Virus record (IMG/VR): IMGVR_UViG_3300020395_000006
Coordinates: 4,265 to 68,264 of that record
Direction: 5' to 3' (one strand)
Origin: a virus
DNA: 64,000 bases
Shown: positions 708 to 57,534 of the stretch, one piece after another
How the letters are laid out: every line of letters begins with the position of its first letter
How positions within the stretch are numbered: position 1 is the first letter of the stretch
Translations under genes and position numbers: made by a program
The notes under the pieces: model-generated
The model's input: only the letters and a program-made list of their open reading frames with translations
What the model was told of the DNA's origin: nothing
The model's database searches: none

Positions 708-1493
708 TTATAGTATAGACGCTAGAGTTGCCTTTGAAACCTTGCTTGTGACAGTTTGTTCAGTGGTTGCAATCCTTTCCTTTGCCTTAGTATAATATTC
801 CTTTGACTTCTCGCATCCTAGATACTCCCTACCAGTTCTAATGCTTGCAACGGCAGTTGATCCACTACCTACAAAACAATCCAATACAACGTCACCTACG
901 TTAGTATATGCCTTGATTATACGCTCTAGTATCTCAACATTCTTAGTGGTAGGATGCCACCCTATAAACTCTTTACTGGTAGTATGATTATTCTTTTCCC
1001 ATACACATGTAGGTATGGTTCCCTGAGTATGTGCTTTACCAGTTCTAAGATTTTTCTTGACTTTTCTCTCAATTCTAATATCATTAGCATTGAATAGAAA
1101 CTTCTCACCCTTAGAATAGCACCATGCGTATTCATGCTTACGAGCAAAGTTATCTTTAGATCTACCACCCCAGTTATAAGACCAAATAATCTCATTCTGT
1201 GGAAATATACCTTTAGTTCTATTCAATGCAAGTTTATATAATAAGAATGATTCAGTCTTGAGAGTACCCCATACAACTAGCATACGCTCATCCTTGAGTA
1301 CCCTAATGCACTCCTTAGTCCATTCTAAACACCATTTGATGTATTCTCTCTCATCCTCCCATCTATCCCATCCTTTACCACCATCAAATCCTATATTATA
1401 TGGTGGATCAGTCAAGACTAGATCTACTGAGTTGTCAGGTATTCTTTTCAAATACTTGAGACAATCCATATTTGAAATTGTGTTGTGCTTCAT
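708..1493 (-). CDS. DNA amino-methyltransferase (N6-adenine/N4-cytosine, beta class)
   Basis: Catalytic DPPY motif near the N-terminus, HPTTK, and SAM-binding VLDCFVGSGST near the C-terminus. Confidence 0.92.
   Translation of the reverse strand: MKHNTISNMDCLKYLKRIPDNSVDLVLTDPPYNIGFDGGKGWDRWEDEREYIKWCLEWTKECIRVLKDERMLVVWGTLKTESFLLYKLALNRTKGIFPQNEIIWSYNWGGRSKDNFARKHEYAWCYSKGEKFLFNANDIRIERKVKKNLRTGKAHTQGTIPTCVWEKNNHTTSKEFIGWHPTTKNVEILERIIKAYTNVGDVVLDCFVGSGSTAVASIRTGREYLGCEKSKEYYTKAKERIATTEQTVTSKVSKATLASIL
712..768 (-). promoter_or_regulatory. early sigma70-type promoter with upstream box
   Basis: AACCACTGAACAAACTGTCACA-N7-TTTCAA-N16-TATACT; the box differs from 4438-4461 at one of 24 positions. 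Confidence 0.65.
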
Positions 1494-2017
1494 GCTAATA
1501 CCTCGTCAATAGATGTGAACCAGTCAGGAATATTTGTACCAATGGAGTCTAAGAAAAATGTTCCTGAGTTTACTTTCTTACCACCATGCTGATTATATAA
1601 CCACTCACCCTTTTCATTTTGTACTTCTAAATTATTCTTTACATCATCCTTAGTTGCTCCATAGAATTCTATTCTATCAGGAAATATAGCAAGAAATACA
1701 ACAACATCATAATCTTGTGCAGGTCTTAGTTGTTGCCACCTAAAATGGGTGTTAGTTCCTGACCATAACATAGACCCCTTGATTTCTACCTTCTTACCAT
1801 TGATTTTTCTATCATGGTCAGAATTATCAGGTTTGGTTACATTATAACCTAACTGATTACAGTACTCTTGAACTATTGCTTCAAAAGCAGCACCTTTTTT
1901 CTTACTACTCATGTGCTTATATATTTGAAACACTGAATTCTTATAGTGACAGTTTTCAATCTCAGCAAGTGCTTTTGCATGTGTAGTAAATGTAGTAATA
2001 GCAGACTCAGATAACAT
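1490..2017 (-). CDS. putative PD-(D/E)XK endonuclease, type II restriction-like
   Basis: KGAAFE helix, then DHD-x8-EIK catalytic-like motif; 4-bp overlap with the methyltransferase start. Confidence 0.6.
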   Translation of the reverse strand: MLSESAITTFTTHAKALAEIENCHYKNSVFQIYKHMSSKKKGAAFEAIVQEYCNQLGYNVTKPDNSDHDRKINGKKVEIKGSMLWSGTNTHFRWQQLRPAQDYDVVVFLAIFPDRIEFYGATKDDVKNNLEVQNEKGEWLYNQHGGKKVNSGTFFLDSIGTNIPDWFTSIDEVLA

Positions 2018-2040
2018 TGAATTTCTTTGTTGTTATACTC

Positions 2041-2068
2041 ATTATAGTCACTATTATATCATAATCAA
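2041..2068 (-). promoter_or_regulatory. sigma70-type promoter for the nuclease-methyltransferase pair
   Basis: TTGATT-N16-TATAAT, with a variant upstream box (GCCAATTTTTATACTGGTATA) at about 2075-2095. Confidence 0.6.
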
Positions 2069-2097
2069 TGAAATTATACCAGTATAAAAATTGGCAT

Positions 2098-2126
2098 AAG
2101 AAAACCTACCGTATAGGTAGGTTTCT
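2098..2126 (-). terminator. intrinsic terminator after the KTSC-like gene
   Basis: Hairpin AAACCTACC-TATAC-GGTAGGTTT followed by TCTT on the minus strand. Confidence 0.6.
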
Positions 2127-2177
2127 TGCGAGATTATGCGAAGTTCAAAATATTCAGTTGTCTTTGTTGCAGTTAGA

Positions 2178-2399
2178 TTATACTGCTTGTAGTTGACCTT
2201 CCTTTCTGTATGAAGCGATCAATCTACCTACACTCTCACCTTTTGCAAGAGCGTTTTCTAGTCCAGTGCGAACTAGGTTAGCATCTTTTGCTAAGAATCC
2301 GTACTCCTTATCAGCAGAAGTAAATGTCACACCAACTGCATTGTCAGTACCAAAAGATACAGCAGCGATAGAGGATGACTTAGGGAAACGCATAATCAT
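2178..2399 (-). CDS. KTSC-like small putative RNA-binding protein
   Basis: Pattern SSSIAAVSF...VGVTF...EYGF...ESVGRLIA resembles the KTSC consensus (SSxI..v.Yd..L.V.F..Y.Y..S.G.f); start placed at Met15 (Met17 also possible). Confidence 0.55.
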   Translation of the reverse strand: MIMRFPKSSSIAAVSFGTDNAVGVTFTSADKEYGFLAKDANLVRTGLENALAKGESVGRLIASYRKEGQLQAV

Positions 2400-2428
2400 A
2401 ATAAAGTAATGGAACATGCCTAGTTTAT

Positions 2429-2594
2429 AGTCATACGACATGACTTGAATTACACTATCAGAGAATTGAACTCTATCAACTGTTCGATCAAGACAGACTC
2501 ACCAGAGTAGTGCATGAAGTAGCATGGTCAAGAGGTGCTTCACCTGATCCTAACCCATTTACTGAGTCTAATTACAGGTACTAACTCACGCTAC
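2429..2594 (-). ncRNA. structured RNA 2 / long 5' leader containing a tRNA-like cloverleaf
   Basis: Begins 7 nt after a -10 box with GUAGCGUG, which pairs with CAUGCUAC; cloverleaf-like domain at 2451-2513 with a canonical T-arm; 3' hairpin AGUCAU/AUGACU. Confidence 0.6.
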
Positions 2595-2600
2595 AAATGT

Positions 2601-2658
2601 ATGATAGTCGATTTAGTGTCAGTTTCAATAATGAATGTGACACTAAATCAACCGTCAC
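2601..2658 (-). promoter_or_regulatory. early promoter with upstream box, driving RNA 2 and the KTSC-like gene
   Basis: GTGACGGTTGATTTAGTGTCACA-N7-TTGAAA-N16-TATCAT; a 12-bp inverted repeat flanks the -35. Confidence 0.65.
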
Positions 2659-2664
2659 AAGAAG

Positions 2665-3073
2665 AAATGGGAGTGGGGCATCAACATAGGTTTCACCTAT
2701 ATGCCCAAATTTACCTCATGGGAATCGCTTACACCTGAACCCCTACTAAACAACAAGTAACCATATAAGGAGTGTACGTGGCAGATGTCTGACCGAATAG
2801 GATTTCTCCGACAGTCTCAGGGATGCCAACGTATGCCATATCCAAAATGATTGAACCCTTGTTAGAGTTCGGGCATGAGAACCACATATCCCAGACGGAC
2901 TTACACCATGAGTTTTTAGAACCTCACCCTAATGGAGTTTTGGTACTATGGATGCCAAATGCGAGGAGTCAGTGCATTACCCAACATCATATCTAAGATT
3001 TACAGGACTTACAACAATAAGAGCAAATCGTTGATGTACGCCTGATGTCCTAGTAGTTGTGAACCTCGCTCAT
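2665..3073 (-). ncRNA. putative large structured non-coding RNA (about 410 nt)
   Basis: No credible ORF; consensus promoter directly upstream; many stems with G-U pairs and GAAA-containing loops on the minus strand. Confidence 0.65.
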
Positions 3074-3234
3074 GTACCTATTATAGTCGGTTGACTTTGG
3101 TTGTCAAGTAATGTCAGGACATCCTGATAATCTTCAGAATTGATCCCTATCATCATCTCATAATAGGTAGCATAATCAATACCTAACTTTCTGGCATATA
3201 ATTCATGGTCTAAATGGTTGAATTCCTTGTCCAT
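3070..3234 (-). CDS. small hypothetical protein (54 aa)
   Basis: Manually translated MDKEFNHLDHELYARKLGIDYATYYEMMIG...; follows the cobS-like gene. Confidence 0.55.
   Translation of the reverse strand: MDKEFNHLDHELYARKLGIDYATYYEMMIGINSEDYQDVLTLLDNQSQPTIIGT
3080..3107 (-). promoter_or_regulatory. consensus sigma70 promoter
   Basis: TTGACA-N16-TATAAT pointing into the non-coding region. Confidence 0.8.
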
Positions 3235-3263
3235 GATTAGTTTGGTATCGTTGAATACTAAGT

Positions 3264-4382
3264 CTATGTATTAGACTTAGTATTTACATCATCATCAAGT
3301 TTAGAGTATAGTTGCATGAATGATGTTTTAGTCTCATCATCAAATCGGTTGAGACACATTTCTAATGCTTTCATCTTATCACCAAATATTTGATATGCTC
3401 GCATAATGTGAACAAGTCTTCTAGTTGAGATAATTTCATCTATACCTCCATCATTGAAAGTTTTGCGAACAATATCCGCCCAGTCAGTTAGGTAAACAAT
3501 GAATTTTTCATGGTCACCAGTCATAGGAATACCAATAGATTCACATAACTTTCTGAGTATCTTGTTCTCAGTAGCAGCAGTAGGATATTCTTGCTCAAAT
3601 GTAATAGGGAATCGCTCTAAGAACGCTTCATTCAATACATTAGTGCCAATGAAACGTCCATCATCACTACCTTTACCTTTAGTGTTAGCAGTAGCAATGA
3701 CATTGAACCCATTAGCAGGTTTGATGTACTCACCTATCTTCTTTAGGAAGATCCCTTTGCCCTCTAGAATCGGTTGTAAGCATAGTATTTTGTTAGATGC
3801 TAGATCAATCTCATCTAGTAATAAGATCGCTCCACGCTCCAATGCTTCAATGACTGCCCCATTATGCCAAACAGTCTGACCATTGACAAGTCTAAATCCA
3901 CCTATCAAATCATCTTCATCAGTCTCAACAGTTATGTTGACTCTAATAAGTTCTCTGTTTAGTTGTGAACATGCTTGCTCTACTCCAAAAGTCTTACCAT
4001 TACCTGACATACCAGTAATGAATGTAGGATAGAATTCTCTTGAAGCAATTACTTTCTTGAGTGAAGTAAAGTTGCCAAAAGGAATAAATGTATTATCCTT
4101 ACTAGGTACTAAATTCTGTGACTCAGTTTGAGTCTTTTGAAGTTTAGTATTAGTTGGAGTTGGAGTTGCTTGATAGGTAGCAGTTGGAATCTCCTTCTCA
4201 GGATCTTGAATATTCCACTTACCCCTGCTAACCTTCCACTGGTTCAGGTACTTAGTAATAGTCTGATAAGATACATCAGGATTCTTAGCAACATACTCTT
4301 TGACCATATCAGCATTTAGTTCTGTACCAAATTGCGATTTGATAGAGTCAAGGTGTGGTTGAAAATTGATTGTTCTAGGCAT
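3264..4382 (-). CDS. cobS: CobS-like MoxR-family AAA+ ATPase
   Basis: Walker A GMSGNGKT, Walker B LLLDEID, ATANTKG, NEAFLERF, ISTRRL. Confidence 0.88.
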   Translation of the reverse strand: MPRTINFQPHLDSIKSQFGTELNADMVKEYVAKNPDVSYQTITKYLNQWKVSRGKWNIQDPEKEIPTATYQATPTPTNTKLQKTQTESQNLVPSKDNTFIPFGNFTSLKKVIASREFYPTFITGMSGNGKTFGVEQACSQLNRELIRVNITVETDEDDLIGGFRLVNGQTVWHNGAVIEALERGAILLLDEIDLASNKILCLQPILEGKGIFLKKIGEYIKPANGFNVIATANTKGKGSDDGRFIGTNVLNEAFLERFPITFEQEYPTAATENKILRKLCESIGIPMTGDHEKFIVYLTDWADIVRKTFNDGGIDEIISTRRLVHIMRAYQIFGDKMKALEMCLNRFDDETKTSFMQLYSKLDDDVNTKSNT

Positions 4383-4403
4383 AATCTTTTGCTGTATGTG
4401 TTT

Positions 4404-4461
4404 ATTATAATCTGCACTATGGTGGGATGTAACCCACCTTGTGACAGTTTGTTGAGTGGTT
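4404..4461 (-). promoter_or_regulatory. early promoter with upstream box
   Basis: AACCACTCAACAAACTGTCACA-N7-TTACAT-N17-TATAAT. Confidence 0.65.
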
Positions 4462-4464
4462 TTC

Positions 4465-6684
4465 CTATGCTATTTGTTTTGCAAAGGATTGAAGGATGAA
4501 TTTATTAGTCTTCTTACTCTTGAACATCTTCCTAAATGCCTGTGATACCTGACGTTTTGAAGATCCATCTTCTACATCCTCAAGTATATCTGAGTCAACA
4601 TTTAGATCCTTTTGAGGAATAATGTAAAACTTGTTGAATGACTCCATAGTTAGATGTGCATCACCTTTTCTAATTGCTGCCCTATACTCATCATAATCAT
4701 TGTATGAATGATAACCATAAGCATTATAGAAATGCTTCAACCCTCCACGCTCAAGTATTCTAAATCCAATGAATGAAACATTACTGTCTATTGAATCCTT
4801 TACTGCTTCAATTAGTTTCATAGTAAAGTCTCCTCTTGAATGTCCCATTGCAAAAGTCTTACCAGTTTTTCTATTTCTGATAATAGTATTGTAACCGATT
4901 GCTCTAGTTCCATACTTATCTAAGTTATAACCATAAACTTGATTAGTATCTGATCTATCAATATTGTATGATGAATGTTGTCCTTCTCCATCAGTCAATA
5001 CAATTACATGGCACTTCTGTAAACCATTGTTTTTTATCATTGTATTTACTAATTGTCTACTGCAAACAATCGCTTCATTCAATGGTGTTCCTGATAGTGA
5101 GAATCCTCTAGGATATGGCATATTATAGTCAACAAATGATGAAACAGTATTCCATATATTGAGAAGTTGTTGATCTAGTTCTTTAGTCTTTGCTTTAGAT
5201 GATAATACATTTACCATTCTAAAATGACCTTGAACATTGATGTCTCCCTCTTTCCATTCTTTGATAAGATCGGTATCTTTCATGTCTCTGTATGGTCTTA
5301 CTCCACCAACATCTTCATTATTATTTTCTAGTTTTATTGACCATGCGTCATTACTAAAAGCATATACTTCAAATGGTATTTGTACTTTCTTACAGAACCA
5401 TACTAATTGAAATAGTTGCTTTACTGTATCCTTTAGGATATGTTGCATTGAACCACTCCAGTCTAATAAGAATACTAAACCATGATTCTTGCCATCAGGT
5501 ACAGTTGTAATCTTCTTGAATATATCTTCATTATACATGTAAGTATGTAATTTAGAAGTATCAAGTACACCAGTCCTAGCAGTTGCTTGTCTAGCATAAG
5601 AATCAGCAGATTTCTTCATCTCGAATTCTTTTACAAGATAGTTTACTTCTTTAGTAACACTTCTCTTGAATTCTTTATACTCATTACAAGAACTCGCATA
5701 TCTTTCTTTAGACCATTCTTCTGTAATTGCTTCAGTAAAATGTCTATCAAGGTATCCTTTTATCTCATCAAAAGTAACAAGAACATTGTCCATATTCATT
5801 TCAGGTAATGTAACATATACATTCTCATTGTTATAATGCTTATCCTGTTCATTGCATAAATCTTCTACATTTCTATCAAATTGTTCTTGTGTATTTGATA
5901 CATCTATGTTACCAAACTCACCTGCTTGAGTATTAGTTGGTTCACCAGACTCACCCTCTTCAATATCATTTTCTTCACCAAACTCTCCACCTTCAGTATC
6001 ATTTTCTTCTGAATCTTCAGACTCTTCTTTACTATTATTAGGTGCAGGTCTATACTCTACTTGCTCACTATCTCCCTCGCTTGACTCATCATCAGAATTA
6101 GCGTTCATAGACTCCTTCATAGTCTCTTGCATTTCTTTAGTATAAGCATGTAGATCCTTAGATATATCTAAAACTTCATCAAATGTATCTGCCTTAGTCA
6201 TTCTTGTTATAAACTCTTCCTCTTCATCAGTGAAGTTTATATCTACAAAGTTACCTATCTTGAAGTATAGATTGATCTTATCAATAGGTTTCATCCAGTC
6301 AATATTCTTACCTTCAACTTCAAATAGATCATTATTATGTAACTCAGAGTATGCTTCATGGAAATCTCTGTTTAGTCCTCTATATCTTTGCTTTATTTTT
6401 CTCTCAATGCGTGCATCCTCAACCACATTGACATAACCATGTGGAACATGCCTATAAGCATCTTCAGCAATCCATAGTCTATCAGGAGTATATAAGGCAT
6501 GTCCTACCTCGTGAGCAACTAGCATGTCATATACTACCTCACTTGCCTTCTCCCACATAGGTAGAATCAATAGTCTTTTCTTTACATCAAATGATGCAGT
6601 TTCTACATTTTTATGCTCAATGATAATATCTTCAGTAGCAAGTAATCTTGCTAAATTTCCTTTGATTTCAATGTTGATTGGCAT
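4465..6684 (-). CDS. CobT-like protein: N-terminal HEXXH metallopeptidase, acidic linker, C-terminal vWA domain
   Basis: HEVGH and NVVEDARIE; MIDAS motif DWSGS, GTPL, LTDGE. Confidence 0.85.
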   Translation of the reverse strand: MPINIEIKGNLARLLATEDIIIEHKNVETASFDVKKRLLILPMWEKASEVVYDMLVAHEVGHALYTPDRLWIAEDAYRHVPHGYVNVVEDARIERKIKQRYRGLNRDFHEAYSELHNNDLFEVEGKNIDWMKPIDKINLYFKIGNFVDINFTDEEEEFITRMTKADTFDEVLDISKDLHAYTKEMQETMKESMNANSDDESSEGDSEQVEYRPAPNNSKEESEDSEENDTEGGEFGEENDIEEGESGEPTNTQAGEFGNIDVSNTQEQFDRNVEDLCNEQDKHYNNENVYVTLPEMNMDNVLVTFDEIKGYLDRHFTEAITEEWSKERYASSCNEYKEFKRSVTKEVNYLVKEFEMKKSADSYARQATARTGVLDTSKLHTYMYNEDIFKKITTVPDGKNHGLVFLLDWSGSMQHILKDTVKQLFQLVWFCKKVQIPFEVYAFSNDAWSIKLENNNEDVGGVRPYRDMKDTDLIKEWKEGDINVQGHFRMVNVLSSKAKTKELDQQLLNIWNTVSSFVDYNMPYPRGFSLSGTPLNEAIVCSRQLVNTMIKNNGLQKCHVIVLTDGEGQHSSYNIDRSDTNQVYGYNLDKYGTRAIGYNTIIRNRKTGKTFAMGHSRGDFTMKLIEAVKDSIDSNVSFIGFRILERGGLKHFYNAYGYHSYNDYDEYRAAIRKGDAHLTMESFNKFYIIPQKDLNVDSDILEDVEDGSSKRQVSQAFRKMFKSKKTNKFILQSFAKQIA

Positions 6685-52274: not shown

Positions 52275-52302
52275 TGGTTTCTCCAAAGGTAGGGTTTTTA
52301 GT

Positions 52303-52395
52303 CCCCGTTCCTTCAGTCGGCTTTTGCGTCCCATTTGGGATGAACGATTCCGTTCCGAGTCGGCTTACTTGCGACCTCTTCTGAGGTTGAACGTA
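52303..52395 (-). ncRNA. tandem glutamine riboswitch (glnA / Downstream-peptide class)
   Basis: Two units CGUUCA-hairpin-CGCAA..AGCCGACU..GGAACGG with different P2 stems (ACCUC/GAGGU, UCCC/GGGA). Confidence 0.8.
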
Positions 52396-55301: not shown

Positions 55302-56054
55302 TTATAGCACAGATCTTCTACGACAGCAAGGTTTATATCTAAATGAACTCAAACCACTAAGATTACATAAAACTTTCAACATTTCCTCACTATCTTCTGG
55401 CTTATGATAAGAATAATCACCTTGCTTAACATCCCACCACTCACCACCAAACTCTGCATTGGTAAAATTATTCAAAAAATTCAAGGCACCATCAAATCTA
55501 AAGATCATTTTCTCTTGCTGTAAAGCAGTAGCAAATGAAACCTGATCTCTCACACCACCTTGTTGATACCATTCCCACCATGTTTTATTGAACTTATCAC
55601 ACTTTCTTCTCCACAAAATCGTACACATAGGAGAAAAGAATCTTCTAAAATCAAAACCAATTTCCTTCAACATGTATGTGTAATGCATGATCTGACTCTT
55701 ACTCCACCATCCATTATTATAATACTCCATCATCTCATTCAAGTAAGAATGTTTATGTGGATGCTGTAGTACAAACAACTTATCATTATAAGTTGTTAAT
55801 ATCTCTTTACTAATAGCAAAGAAAGGTTCTTTCAATAAATGAAGTCTGGTTGCATCTACATATATACTTTCTTCAAAAGGACAGTTGATTTTATAATATC
55901 TTGATGACCTTACTGGATCACCAAGATCCATTCCTGGTCTTACTTCCCACGGTCCTACTTGCTCTGCATCACCATAACAAATATACTCATTACCAGGTGG
56001 CATTTTCTCTGGAAGTTTAGAATAATTATTGGTTATGCAGGTGTATATAATCAT
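55302..56054 (-). CDS. DUF616-like putative glycosyltransferase, paralogue 3
   Basis: IYTCITNNY, YVDA, HPH, RDQVSF. Confidence 0.75.
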   Translation of the reverse strand: MIIYTCITNNYSKLPEKMPPGNEYICYGDAEQVGPWEVRPGMDLGDPVRSSRYYKINCPFEESIYVDATRLHLLKEPFFAISKEILTTYNDKLFVLQHPHKHSYLNEMMEYYNNGWWSKSQIMHYTYMLKEIGFDFRRFFSPMCTILWRRKCDKFNKTWWEWYQQGGVRDQVSFATALQQEKMIFRFDGALNFLNNFTNAEFGGEWWDVKQGDYSYHKPEDSEEMLKVLCNLSGLSSFRYKPCCRRRSVL

Positions 56055-56818
56055 TGAACACCCCTCATAAATCCATGATCATGTTTGGCATATATTCTTG
56101 ACATCCCCACATACAATTGCATCTCCTGTATAAATTTATTCCTATCTCTCCACTGCTCCAATTCTCCTCTTCGAGGATGCTTACCTTTACGACCAACCTT
56201 ATTACTATGTCCTAATGGTACACCAGTTTCAGTTCTTTCCATAAGATTTGGATTCAATCCAAGTTCTTGCAACGCTGCATCAAAAGATACTTGGTCTCGA
56301 TTTACACCTCTATCAAACCAATGCCACCAAAGATCACCAAACCTACTAATAGTATTAGTCATCTTCCTGTATATAATAGTACCTAAAGGACTTCTATATT
56401 TTCTAAAATTATATCCACATTCAAATAACATCTTCGTAAGTTTTATACCTTGCTCATAAGAAAAGAAAGAACACTCAAACCCTTCTAACATTTCATCATA
56501 GTAAGAGAACCTATTTGGATGTCTTAGTATAGTGAATGGGAATCTAGTCTTTGCATGTTCAACAAACTCCTTTGTCATCTTATAACAACCATCTATCCAC
56601 ACAGTATCCTCACCCTTATCAAAATATTTGTGTGGATTTATCTTTGGGTATGCAGATAATCTTCTAGGACATTCTATGTCTACATCTAATTTTATAAACT
56701 CCCATGGTCCTTTTTGTTCCACAGTTCCATCATGGAACATAACATATCTTACATCAAGATCATAATAATGATCAGGTATTACATCATAACCATTTGTGAT
56801 GCAAGAATATATTATCAT
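56051..56818 (-). CDS. DUF616-like putative glycosyltransferase, paralogue 2
   Basis: IYSCITNGYD, KINPH, WIDG, HP-R, RDQVSF. Confidence 0.8.
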   Translation of the reverse strand: MIIYSCITNGYDVIPDHYYDLDVRYVMFHDGTVEQKGPWEFIKLDVDIECPRRLSAYPKINPHKYFDKGEDTVWIDGCYKMTKEFVEHAKTRFPFTILRHPNRFSYYDEMLEGFECSFFSYEQGIKLTKMLFECGYNFRKYRSPLGTIIYRKMTNTISRFGDLWWHWFDRGVNRDQVSFDAALQELGLNPNLMERTETGVPLGHSNKVGRKGKHPRRGELEQWRDRNKFIQEMQLYVGMSRIYAKHDHGFMRGVQ

Positions 56819-57534
56819 ACTACTGCTCCCAATATATGACGTGCATTTCTAGTGAACTTAGCCTCATCATAATTCGTAATCATTTCATAAGATTCTTCAT
56901 ATGATTTTATTCTATTACTTTTTTCAAGATTAACTTGTAAAGGAACTCTAGGTAATCTTTCACCATAAACTTCCCACTCAGCAATAGCACTTGTAAGTTG
57001 ACACCCATGAAATAATTCATAGTGTTCATACCAATGCCAATATCTCTCATTCCATTCCCTTACCTTTGGTGTATTGTGCCTCCATATACAACAATTTATT
57101 GTATGGTCAAAGAATGATGGCTTGAATCCTGTCTTAGCAAGATCTTCACAGAATCTATACAACCTTTCCTCTGGTACAAATCCCCATGTATATAATTTTA
57201 ATATCTCCCTCAATAAAGTCCTCTTTGTAGGATGACTCATCAATGTTATTTCATTCTGTTCCAAAAATTCTTTTGAGTTCTTTACAAACTCTTCTGTCAT
57301 AGTATAACAACCATCTATCCATACATGTGGTTCATCAAACCATAGATGTGAAAGACATCTAGTATGATATGCATTGAGTACTGGATGATCATACTGACAA
57401 TCTAATTTTCTAAATTCCCATGGTCCTTTACGTGGTATATCTTTATCATAAAACATCACATACTTCACATCCCCATCATAATAATGATCGGGGATGTTGT
57501 CATATGCATTGATGTTAGTGGTAAAGATTATCAT
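56815..57534 (-). CDS. DUF616-like putative glycosyltransferase, paralogue 1
   Basis: IFTTNINAYD, WIDG, HP-KR; GCQLTS replaces RDQVSF. Confidence 0.7.
   Translation of the reverse strand: MIIFTTNINAYDNIPDHYYDGDVKYVMFYDKDIPRKGPWEFRKLDCQYDHPVLNAYHTRCLSHLWFDEPHVWIDGCYTMTEEFVKNSKEFLEQNEITLMSHPTKRTLLREILKLYTWGFVPEERLYRFCEDLAKTGFKPSFFDHTINCCIWRHNTPKVREWNERYWHWYEHYELFHGCQLTSAIAEWEVYGERLPRVPLQVNLEKSNRIKSYEESYEMITNYDEAKFTRNARHILGAVV

Follow-up and report, generated by a model that had tools for sequence, protein, structure and literature searches.

Many of the principal photosynthetic bacteria of the ocean, a large share overall, are killed by T4-like cyanophages, whose early programme consists mostly of unannotated small genes. 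The structured RNAs manA (RF01745), wcaG (RF01761), and PhotoRC-II (RF01717) are nearly confined to marine metagenomes and T4-like cyanophages, as described in PMC2864571. Moreover, PMC10690425 reports more than 10,000 unnamed candidate structured RNAs, not in Rfam 15, from the intergenic regions of IMG/VR viruses. The present analysis concerns a stretch of 64,000 nt (positions 4,265 to 68,264 of IMG/VR virus record IMGVR_UViG_3300020395_000006), hereafter the window, and specifically the region at 3107-2665 on its minus strand, for which an earlier note made from the sequence alone had proposed one undescribed structured RNA of ~410 nt. It was concluded that the region is a real, structured, non-coding, and phage-specific RNA on the minus strand, absent from Rfam 15. 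By sequence comparison, the stretch is two tandem, self-contained RNAs (units 1 and 2), each closed by its own terminal helix, together with a linker, and both units are separately conserved RNA families of marine T4-like cyanophages. This identity, namely, two conserved structured phage RNA families in tandem, was held with high confidence.

Unit 2 (2898-2663, minus strand) is a three-way junction RNA. The unit 2 alignment contained 49 distinct copies of at most 190 nt in addition to the window copy; the sequences were picked by an exact pattern, and the structure was derived from the same sequences. Pairing was found in 98.0% of 1415 cells, compared with 86.7 ± 0.5% in shuffles, and 15 of the 29 pairs were changed on both sides (9.5 in shuffles), so that the covariation among homologues named as a check in the earlier note was seen. 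The number of cells changed on both sides was 164, compared with 43.9 ± 7.6 in shuffles, and such cell counts overstate the independent events because of the exact-pattern gathering and the many close relatives, which weighs against the reading. The covariation score was 0.332, compared with 0.129 in shuffles. None of 500 shuffles equalled the unit 2 values on four of five measures, and 30 of 500 did so on pair types. When the partners were slid by 1-3 columns as a control, pairing fell to 35-51%. P2 was paired in 49 of 49 copies, and four of its five pairs covaried, with two or three versions each. Moreover, the alignment contained 28 G-U cells, which are A-C mismatches on the other strand. 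Thus, the minus strand was favoured, as the earlier note had argued from its own G-U pairs. The 122-nt unit 2 of Prochlorococcus phage P-SSM2, which lay outside the alignment, had all six helices in its minimum-energy fold (z -2.11, with 6 of 200 shuffles as good).

Read 5' to 3' along the minus strand, unit 2 starts with P1 (UUGAGGGA with UCCCUCAA; 2893-2889 with 2672-2668), which is followed by a UAU bulge, P1a (2885-2883 with 2675-2673), P2 (2879-2875 with 2719-2715), and P2a (2873-2871 with 2742-2740), the last closing a variable domain. The 3' side continues with a nearly invariant 20-nt internal loop, UUCAGGUGUAAGCGAUUCCC (2739-2720), between P2a and P2, then the junction strand GUAAAUUU (2714-2707), P3 (2706-2702 with 2680-2676), and P3a (2699-2695 with 2691-2687) capped by GGUGAAACC, before the chain returns to P1a and P1. 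The stem GGGCAU/AUGCCC around AUAGG-UGAAA-CCUAU, proposed in the earlier note, was supported by relatives and corresponds to P3/P3a, and its AUGCC/GGCAU stem was abandoned because P2/P2a, which covary, compete with it. The window has 8 nt between P3 and a U-rich tail (2667-2656, minus strand, read from the sequence).

The conservation of the 20-nt loop was determined with a scan anchored in the 3' hairpin region, which excludes the loop; 150 anchors were obtained, and 8 in unrelated coding DNA were dropped. The loop was exact in 119 of the 142 remaining copies, and the other 23 differed by 1-2 letters, mostly by UUCAGG becoming UACAGG. The junction strand occupied invariant alignment columns, and its AAAUUU is both invariant and self-complementary; this strand lies partly inside the anchor of the loop-conservation scan and outside the anchor of the 20-mer scan. 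A GGG and the loop CCC, the two sides of a possible alternative T-arm-like pairing, were also both invariant. The second copy of AGUAGG, located before the GGGG of unit 2, showed no covariation with P2 by eye; thus, no switch was supported. In the DNA upstream of each 20-mer, two blocks formerly treated as separate, "B" and "C", proved to form a single RNA, of which one is the 5' half and the other the 3' half. A regular expression for the 5' half matched 95 of 127 loci. Among 27 of the misses, approximately 21 contained variant 5' halves by eye, and 6 had no 5' half within 120 nt.

The variable domain in the tip of P2a spans 2870-2744 (minus strand), or 127 nt in the window, and holds GAACUCU/AGGGUUC as well as UACGUUGGCA/UGCCACGUA around GACUG/CGGUC and GGA-GAAA-UCC. 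The UACGUUGGCA/UGCCACGUA stem had been drawn in the earlier note, and it was supported in that CAUUGGCA/UGCCAUG takes the place of the window's CGUUGGCA/UGCCACG in relatives with the same domain type. Other relatives carry short GAAA- or GCAA-loop hairpins in this place. Among relatives, the 5' half starts 34 to ~250 nt ahead of the 3' half, with tip-loop inserts of ~8 to more than 200 nt. Elsewhere, the variable domain carries whole modules that also stand alone, including the hairpin of window unit 1 and the module that follows window unit 2. RNA contigs of relatives skip the variable domain exactly, by 117-118 nt (2749 to 2867/8) or by 53 nt (2777 to 2831).

A covariance model, R1, was built from the alignment. 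In the window it matched 2898-2663 with 119.1 bits (E 2.4e-32, model positions 1-133), which was the sole match in the 64 kb; the window copy was in the R1 seed and so matches by construction. Independent checks were provided by P-SSM2 (140.5 bits, one copy) and contig L148 (126.2 bits). In 28 further loci R1 found one copy, and no match was found in the S-SSM7 genome.

For unit 1 (about 3073-2961, minus strand), two scans and the collected loci gave 31 distinct rows, namely, 14 complete copies, 2 cut copies, and 15 chance matches to coding DNA, and the family was defined by eye. Every complete copy begins 6-8 nt after a -10 box, which is an exact TATAAT in 11 of the 14. The family has four helices, namely, a long closing helix, P1b, CUAAGA/UCUUAG, and CAGG/CCUG around a variable insert. 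P1b was fully paired in 12 of the 14 copies and occurred in five compensating versions: CUAAAC/GUUUAG, CCUUUC/GAAAGG, UCUUUC/GAAAGA, CACAAC/GUUGGG, and UCCAAC/GUUAGA. These were counted by eye because MAFFT set two P1b types one column apart. The window copy showed all features of the family, with a -10 box, P1 (GCGAGG 3069-3064 with CCUCGC 2966-2961), P1b (CACAAC 3061-3056 with GUUGGG 2985-2980, one mismatch), a helix of the CUAAGA/UCUUAG type as P2 (CUAGGA 3053-3048 with UCUUAG 2998-2993), and CAGG/CCUG as P2a (3044-3041 with 3006-3003), inside which a hairpin is inserted (3033-3027 with 3018-3012), all on the minus strand. P1, P2, P2a, and the hairpin form in the minimum-energy fold of the window copy.

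The stems drawn in this part by the earlier note fared differently. GCGAGG/CCUCGC was supported by relatives as P1 of unit 1. CAACGAU/AUUGUUG is present in the minimum-energy fold of the window, and relatives change only one of its sides, which weakens the pairing. AGGAC/GUCCU was mismatched or lacked a partner in all 13 relatives, where CUAAGA/UCUUAG and CAGG/CCUG pair instead. The 38-nt hairpin module inside window unit 1 (3042-3005) also stands alone in intergenic DNA of Synechococcus phage S-SSM7 (2501-2538, 94.7% identity). In contig L149 (10455-10640), a hybrid was recognized by eye, with a unit 1 body and the closing-helix sequence of unit 2 (UUGAGAGA...UCUCUCAA), and this suggests that the two families share ancestry or swap parts.

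The linker between the units (2960-2899, minus strand) was read from the sequence as containing a small hairpin and ending in GUAAGUCC, which also terminates inserted modules in relatives; no homologue of the linker was found by blastn among the loci. Downstream of unit 2, non-coding RNA modules run on to ~2451. Thus, the limits drawn in the earlier note were not retained on either count, as the stretch is two RNAs with a linker and the modules continue past its end. Unit 2 and the next module are separated by a long hairpin of ~18 bp that is almost perfect (2656-2603, minus strand); this hairpin was the only element that came up in an internal repeat search of the contig, it had no homologue among the loci, and a promoter-like TTGAAA-16-TATCAT (2628-2601) overlaps it. 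The module after unit 2 (2596-2509, minus strand) consists of GAGUUAGUACC, a hairpin, and then GGUGAAGCACCUCUUGAC, and compensating changes were present in one relative (CCUG/CAGG vs CCCU/AGGG; ACUCA/UGGGU vs ACUCA/UGAGU). In P-SSM2 this module comes immediately after unit 2, and in contigs L037 and L087 it lies inside the variable domain of unit 2. The recurring motifs listed in the earlier note (GAGGUUC twice, UGUAAGUCC twice, GAUAUG three times, and UUGGCAUCC twice) were present, and its suggestion of duplicated modules was borne out in the form of repeated or related modules.

A blastn search against 50,697 phage records returned 12 records, none of which spanned the region; the matches were short blocks in intergenic DNA without annotation, with 83-95% identity. 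Among database entries, those closest to the flagged DNA were the Prochlorococcus phages P-SSM2 and P-SSM5, together with the single-cell "Marine virus AG-345" records (Kyanoviridae), and the source of the window is a T4-like cyanophage. The exact 20-mer of unit 2 had at least 119 matches in IMG/VR. The same exact 20-mer had none in 185,579 bacterial and archaeal species (one genome each), a search that did not extend to diverged homologues, and a cellular homologue was rejected within that scope. The genes flanking the region in the window had no blastn similarity to any of 127 loci, whereas the modules were 80-97% identical; the order of the blocks differed among contigs, and all blocks were always on one strand.

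A distance of 600-950 nt, with unit 1 upstream, separates the two units in at least 10 contigs as well as in P-SSM2 and P-SSM5. The gene between the units in P-SSM2 and P-SSM5 belongs to the PSSM2_070 family (~145 aa), and in several other contigs a gene of this family starts right after unit 1. No homologue of the PSSM2_070 family was found in the window contig by tblastn; thus, units 1 and 2 abut there. Consequently, the single ~410-nt RNA of the earlier note was replaced by two units, as relatives show two units, at least 10 contigs separate them by the ~145-aa gene, and many copies have their own promoter. The closest synteny was found in contig L092, where CobS is 71%, the 87-aa protein 51%, and the 175-aa protein 47% identical, with a different module ahead of unit 2. 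In P-SSM2 (NC_006883.2), unit 2 occupies 56698-56819 in the unannotated gap between PSSM2_070 and PSSM2_071. The unannotated gaps around PSSM2_070 hold unit 1 (~55880-56110) and unit 2 with the next module (56567-56932), and the locus tag PSSM2_069 is absent from the record at the first gap.

Folding energy was evaluated for the whole stretch as well. As one molecule, the 411 nt folded with -107 kcal/mol (z +1.00), and 82 of 100 shuffles folded as well; the opposite strand gave z -0.16. One 411-nt RNA was therefore rejected, as folding was no better than in shuffles on either strand and relatives split the stretch into units. Accordingly, the case for structure rests on the relatives and not on folding energy.

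The catalogue searches matched no known family in the region. When the window was searched with the 4227 models of Rfam 15 at gathering score, no match was obtained in the region, and the sole match in the 64 kb was a glutamine riboswitch (RF01739) at 52302-52348 on the minus strand (37 bits vs a threshold of 35). At E<=10, the region 2300-3350 gave 13 chance-level matches, the best with 24.9 bits vs a threshold of 50, and the unit 2 copy of P-SSM2 with 150 nt on either side gave 0 matches. Group I and II introns, ribozymes, 6S, RNase P, 5S, and SRP RNA were rejected, as none had an Rfam match at E<=10; a short resemblance to 5S rRNA and to RNase P RNA was given no weight. In the 64-kb window, ARAGORN returned 0 tRNA or tmRNA genes. 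The literature searches turned up no account of the two RNAs. The word "undescribed" in the earlier note thus stands with respect to Rfam 15 and the literature found, and it is weakened in that the unit families may be among the candidates of PMC10690425.

The minus strand contains TTGACA (3107-3102), a 16-nt spacer, and TATAAT (3085-3080), a 12/12 match to a sigma-70 type promoter, exactly as read in the earlier note; from the position of this promoter, the RNA is predicted to start near 3073. The region contained 13 promoter-like sites, compared with 6.1 ± 2.8 in shuffles. The GC fraction at 2701-3000 was 0.44-0.46, compared with 0.32-0.38 in the flanks and 0.362 in the 68-kb contig, and the earlier observation of a GC-rich region was correct. 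Its judgement that there is no credible open reading frame (ORF) was also upheld. The only minus-strand ORFs of at least 30 aa inside the region were 2729-2887 (52 aa), which spans the variable domain of unit 2, and 3070-3234 (54 aa), which is upstream of the RNA start, and neither had a Pfam match. A conserved reading frame was not kept among relatives, as copies differ by single-base indels in P3 and the insert lengths are not multiples of three; therefore, unit 2 was counted as non-coding. Upstream, the 54-aa ORF is preceded by a CobS-like AAA ATPase (3264-4382), and the downstream neighbour is an 87-aa ORF (2178-2441). Further along the minus strand (708-2017), a DNA methylase (PF01555, E 2.2e-55) has a 4-bp overlap with a 175-aa ORF that has no Pfam match.

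The stretch was also searched for in sequencing runs and was present in 20 of the 24 listed runs, 6 of the 20 being RNA libraries. Four RNA runs from four studies were compared over 1400-4600, all as contigs. Contigs with zero differences from the window covered 2723-3011 (run X2, depth 48.2), 2720-3011 (X7, 48.8), and 2723-2962 (X9, 78), and identical contigs over the flanking genes had a depth of 2-11. The summed depth peaked at 2684-2790, the part common to relatives, with values of 389, 351, 1614, and 3729. The higher contig depth over the units in three studies is a hint of expression, and it is to be read within certain limits. Contigs cannot rank genes or prove transcription, they leave the strand and ends of an RNA undefined, and RNA libraries may contain DNA; these limits weigh against the reading. 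No weight was given to parts that lacked cover.

To place unit 2 relative to genes, position statistics were obtained from 70 distinct copies with both flanks. A -10 box (at least 5 of 6 letters) lay 2-12 nt before P1 in 33 of the 70, compared with 10.7% of 2000 random positions, and 13 of these 33 copies also carried a -35 box. An ATG frame of at least 30 codons started within 200 nt downstream in 65 of the 70, some of which may be spurious in RNA-rich DNA. The commonest neighbour families were almost wholly on the RNA strand. Within 25 nt after P1, a U-rich tract (8 nt with 6 or more U) was found in 24 of the 70 and a run of at least 5 U in 14. In the region, a search for an intrinsic terminator, that is, a compact GC-rich hairpin with a direct U run, gave only a weak site (2870-2853) inside the variable domain.

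Taken together, the following explanation was considered best, and with identity and mechanism blended, it was given about an even chance. In a T4-like cyanophage, the stretch would make up the beginning of an early transcript of ~650 nt that contains no genes. The RNA polymerase of the host would start at the consensus promoter (3107-3080, minus strand) and would transcribe a chain of independently folding modules, namely, unit 1, the small linker, unit 2, and further modules, each unit being closed by a helix between its own ends and tolerating foreign modules in a hairpin tip. In this account the transcript start, the host polymerase, and the "early" timing were taken from the promoter, and the rest of the module picture is supported by sequence comparison. 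The near-invariant unpaired parts of unit 2 (the 20-nt loop, the junction strand, and the capped P3a hairpin) would form a pocket or surface for a partner, most likely a host macromolecule, that many phages have in common. The units would act in cis as leaders that govern the early transcript through its stability, read-through, or translation, and they would persist as abundant stable fragments. Since the units are usually located directly behind early promoters and ahead of same-strand small early genes, the cis-acting leader array was preferred, although only tentatively.

Besides the overcounted cells and the limits of contigs, several observations weigh against this explanation. For 98 copies, the first downstream ORFs formed 24 clusters, of which the three largest had 27, 20, and 8 members, and the commonest neighbour family was present at 45 of 125 loci; as no neighbour family exceeds this number, a protein partner encoded next to the units was rejected. 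R1 found one unit 2 per genome in the window and in P-SSM2, which suits a dedicated RNA gene no less than a general leader, and in the window unit 2 is separated from the next gene by ~220 nt. The closing helices of the window copies are below the family norm. Unit 2 has a short P1 (5 bp), its folding was no better than in shuffles (z -0.21), and its minimum-energy fold lacks P1 and P2. Likewise, the closing helix of unit 1 is cut to 6 bp, without the outer helix of ~16 bp found in most relatives, and its folding was no better than in shuffles (z -0.95). The fold of the 411 nt as one molecule, described above, points in the same direction.

The strongest competitor was that the units are free-standing, stable, trans-acting RNAs, in which an early-accumulating product sequesters or scaffolds a host factor (a nuclease, RNA polymerase, or a ribosomal component) and the neighbouring genes are incidental. 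This was judged less likely than not, and nearly as likely as the leader array. The single copy per genome, the variable downstream genes, the units' own closing helices, their many own promoters, and the U-rich tract after P1 in 24 of the 70 copies are all in its favour, as is the RNA-contig depth, which in three studies was 5-20 times higher over the units than over the flanking genes. However, contig depth does not measure abundance, only 14 of the 70 copies have the run of at least 5 U within 25 nt, and no conserved compact terminator hairpin was seen. Moreover, the units are always co-oriented with the surrounding genes and are often followed by an ORF within 200 nt.

It is doubtful that unit 2 is the core of a new functional RNA class of marine phages, which would be either a sensor or catalyst with the 20-nt loop as its pocket or an RNA that pairs with itself through AAAUUU and carries interchangeable modules as cargo in its variable arm. 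GOLLD and ROOL are large multimeric phage-associated RNAs, and the self-assembling version is comparable to them in spirit.

That unit 2 is a riboswitch aptamer for a host metabolite or signal, gating early phage genes via P1, was regarded as improbable. A three-way junction with a closing P1, a near-invariant junction and loop, and a variable peripheral hairpin would suit an aptamer, and about half of the copies (33 of 70 by the -10 box) lie in a place like a 5' untranslated region (UTR). Cyanophages also carry riboswitches or candidates, such as the glutamine riboswitch of this window and manA and wcaG (PMC2864571). However, the 24 downstream clusters among 98 copies include no consistent gene family, no conserved expression platform was seen, unit 2 precedes more RNA modules rather than a gene in the window and elsewhere, and other phages hold whole foreign modules inside unit 2.

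Processing was considered very unlikely. If the modules were ribozymes or nuclease-recognition structures that cut a long early transcript, strongly conserved unpaired nucleotides, chained modules, and the recurrence of GUAAGUCC at module ends would be explained. However, no Rfam ribozyme matched, and RNA contigs run unbroken from unit 1 through the linker into unit 2 (2723-3011), although contigs are poor evidence here. The promoter-stem-loop cassettes known as PeSL in T4-type phages are comparable to the least credible alternative, in which mobile promoter and stem-loop cassettes recombine early regions at the DNA level and RNA folding is incidental; modules do occur in many orders, nested, and always co-oriented, with travelling promoters and flanks unrelated at the DNA level, but compensatory changes keep helices 100-230 nt apart, the 28 G-U cells would turn into A-C mismatches on the opposite strand, RNA libraries contain the region, and shuffling accounts for the spread of modules and not for the constraint on pairing.

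Unit 2 offers a testable entry to the early programme, as it is a compact RNA with ~55 near-invariant nucleotides, clear covariation, hundreds of virome copies, a presence in metatranscriptomes, and a copy in a culturable pair, P-SSM2 and Prochlorococcus NATL1A/NATL2A. The nested and chained modules show the evolution of phage RNA by domain shuffling. For annotation, the unit families explain recurrent "empty" GC-rich gaps in cyanophage genomes, such as the gap between PSSM2_070 and PSSM2_071.

Among known systems, the put antiterminator RNAs of phage HK022 are folded, located directly behind early promoters, and act in cis on polymerase, as the units would as leaders; they differ in that their fold and sequence are unrelated and that many cyanophage copies have their own fresh promoter. 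The glutamine riboswitch (glnA RNA, RF01739) is similarly a small conserved cis-regulatory RNA of marine cyanobacteria and their phages, and it differs by an unrelated fold and sequence, a smaller size (53 model positions), and a known ligand. Like the units, manA, wcaG, and PhotoRC-II lie in likely 5' UTRs and are known from comparative evidence only (PMC2864571). However, they show no sequence or model match to the units, which form a three-way junction in which a variable domain is nested, are not linked to genes of metabolism or photosynthesis, and come with chained modules. The units are of the same kind as these orphan structured RNAs of marine phages, without homology to manA, wcaG, or PhotoRC-II.

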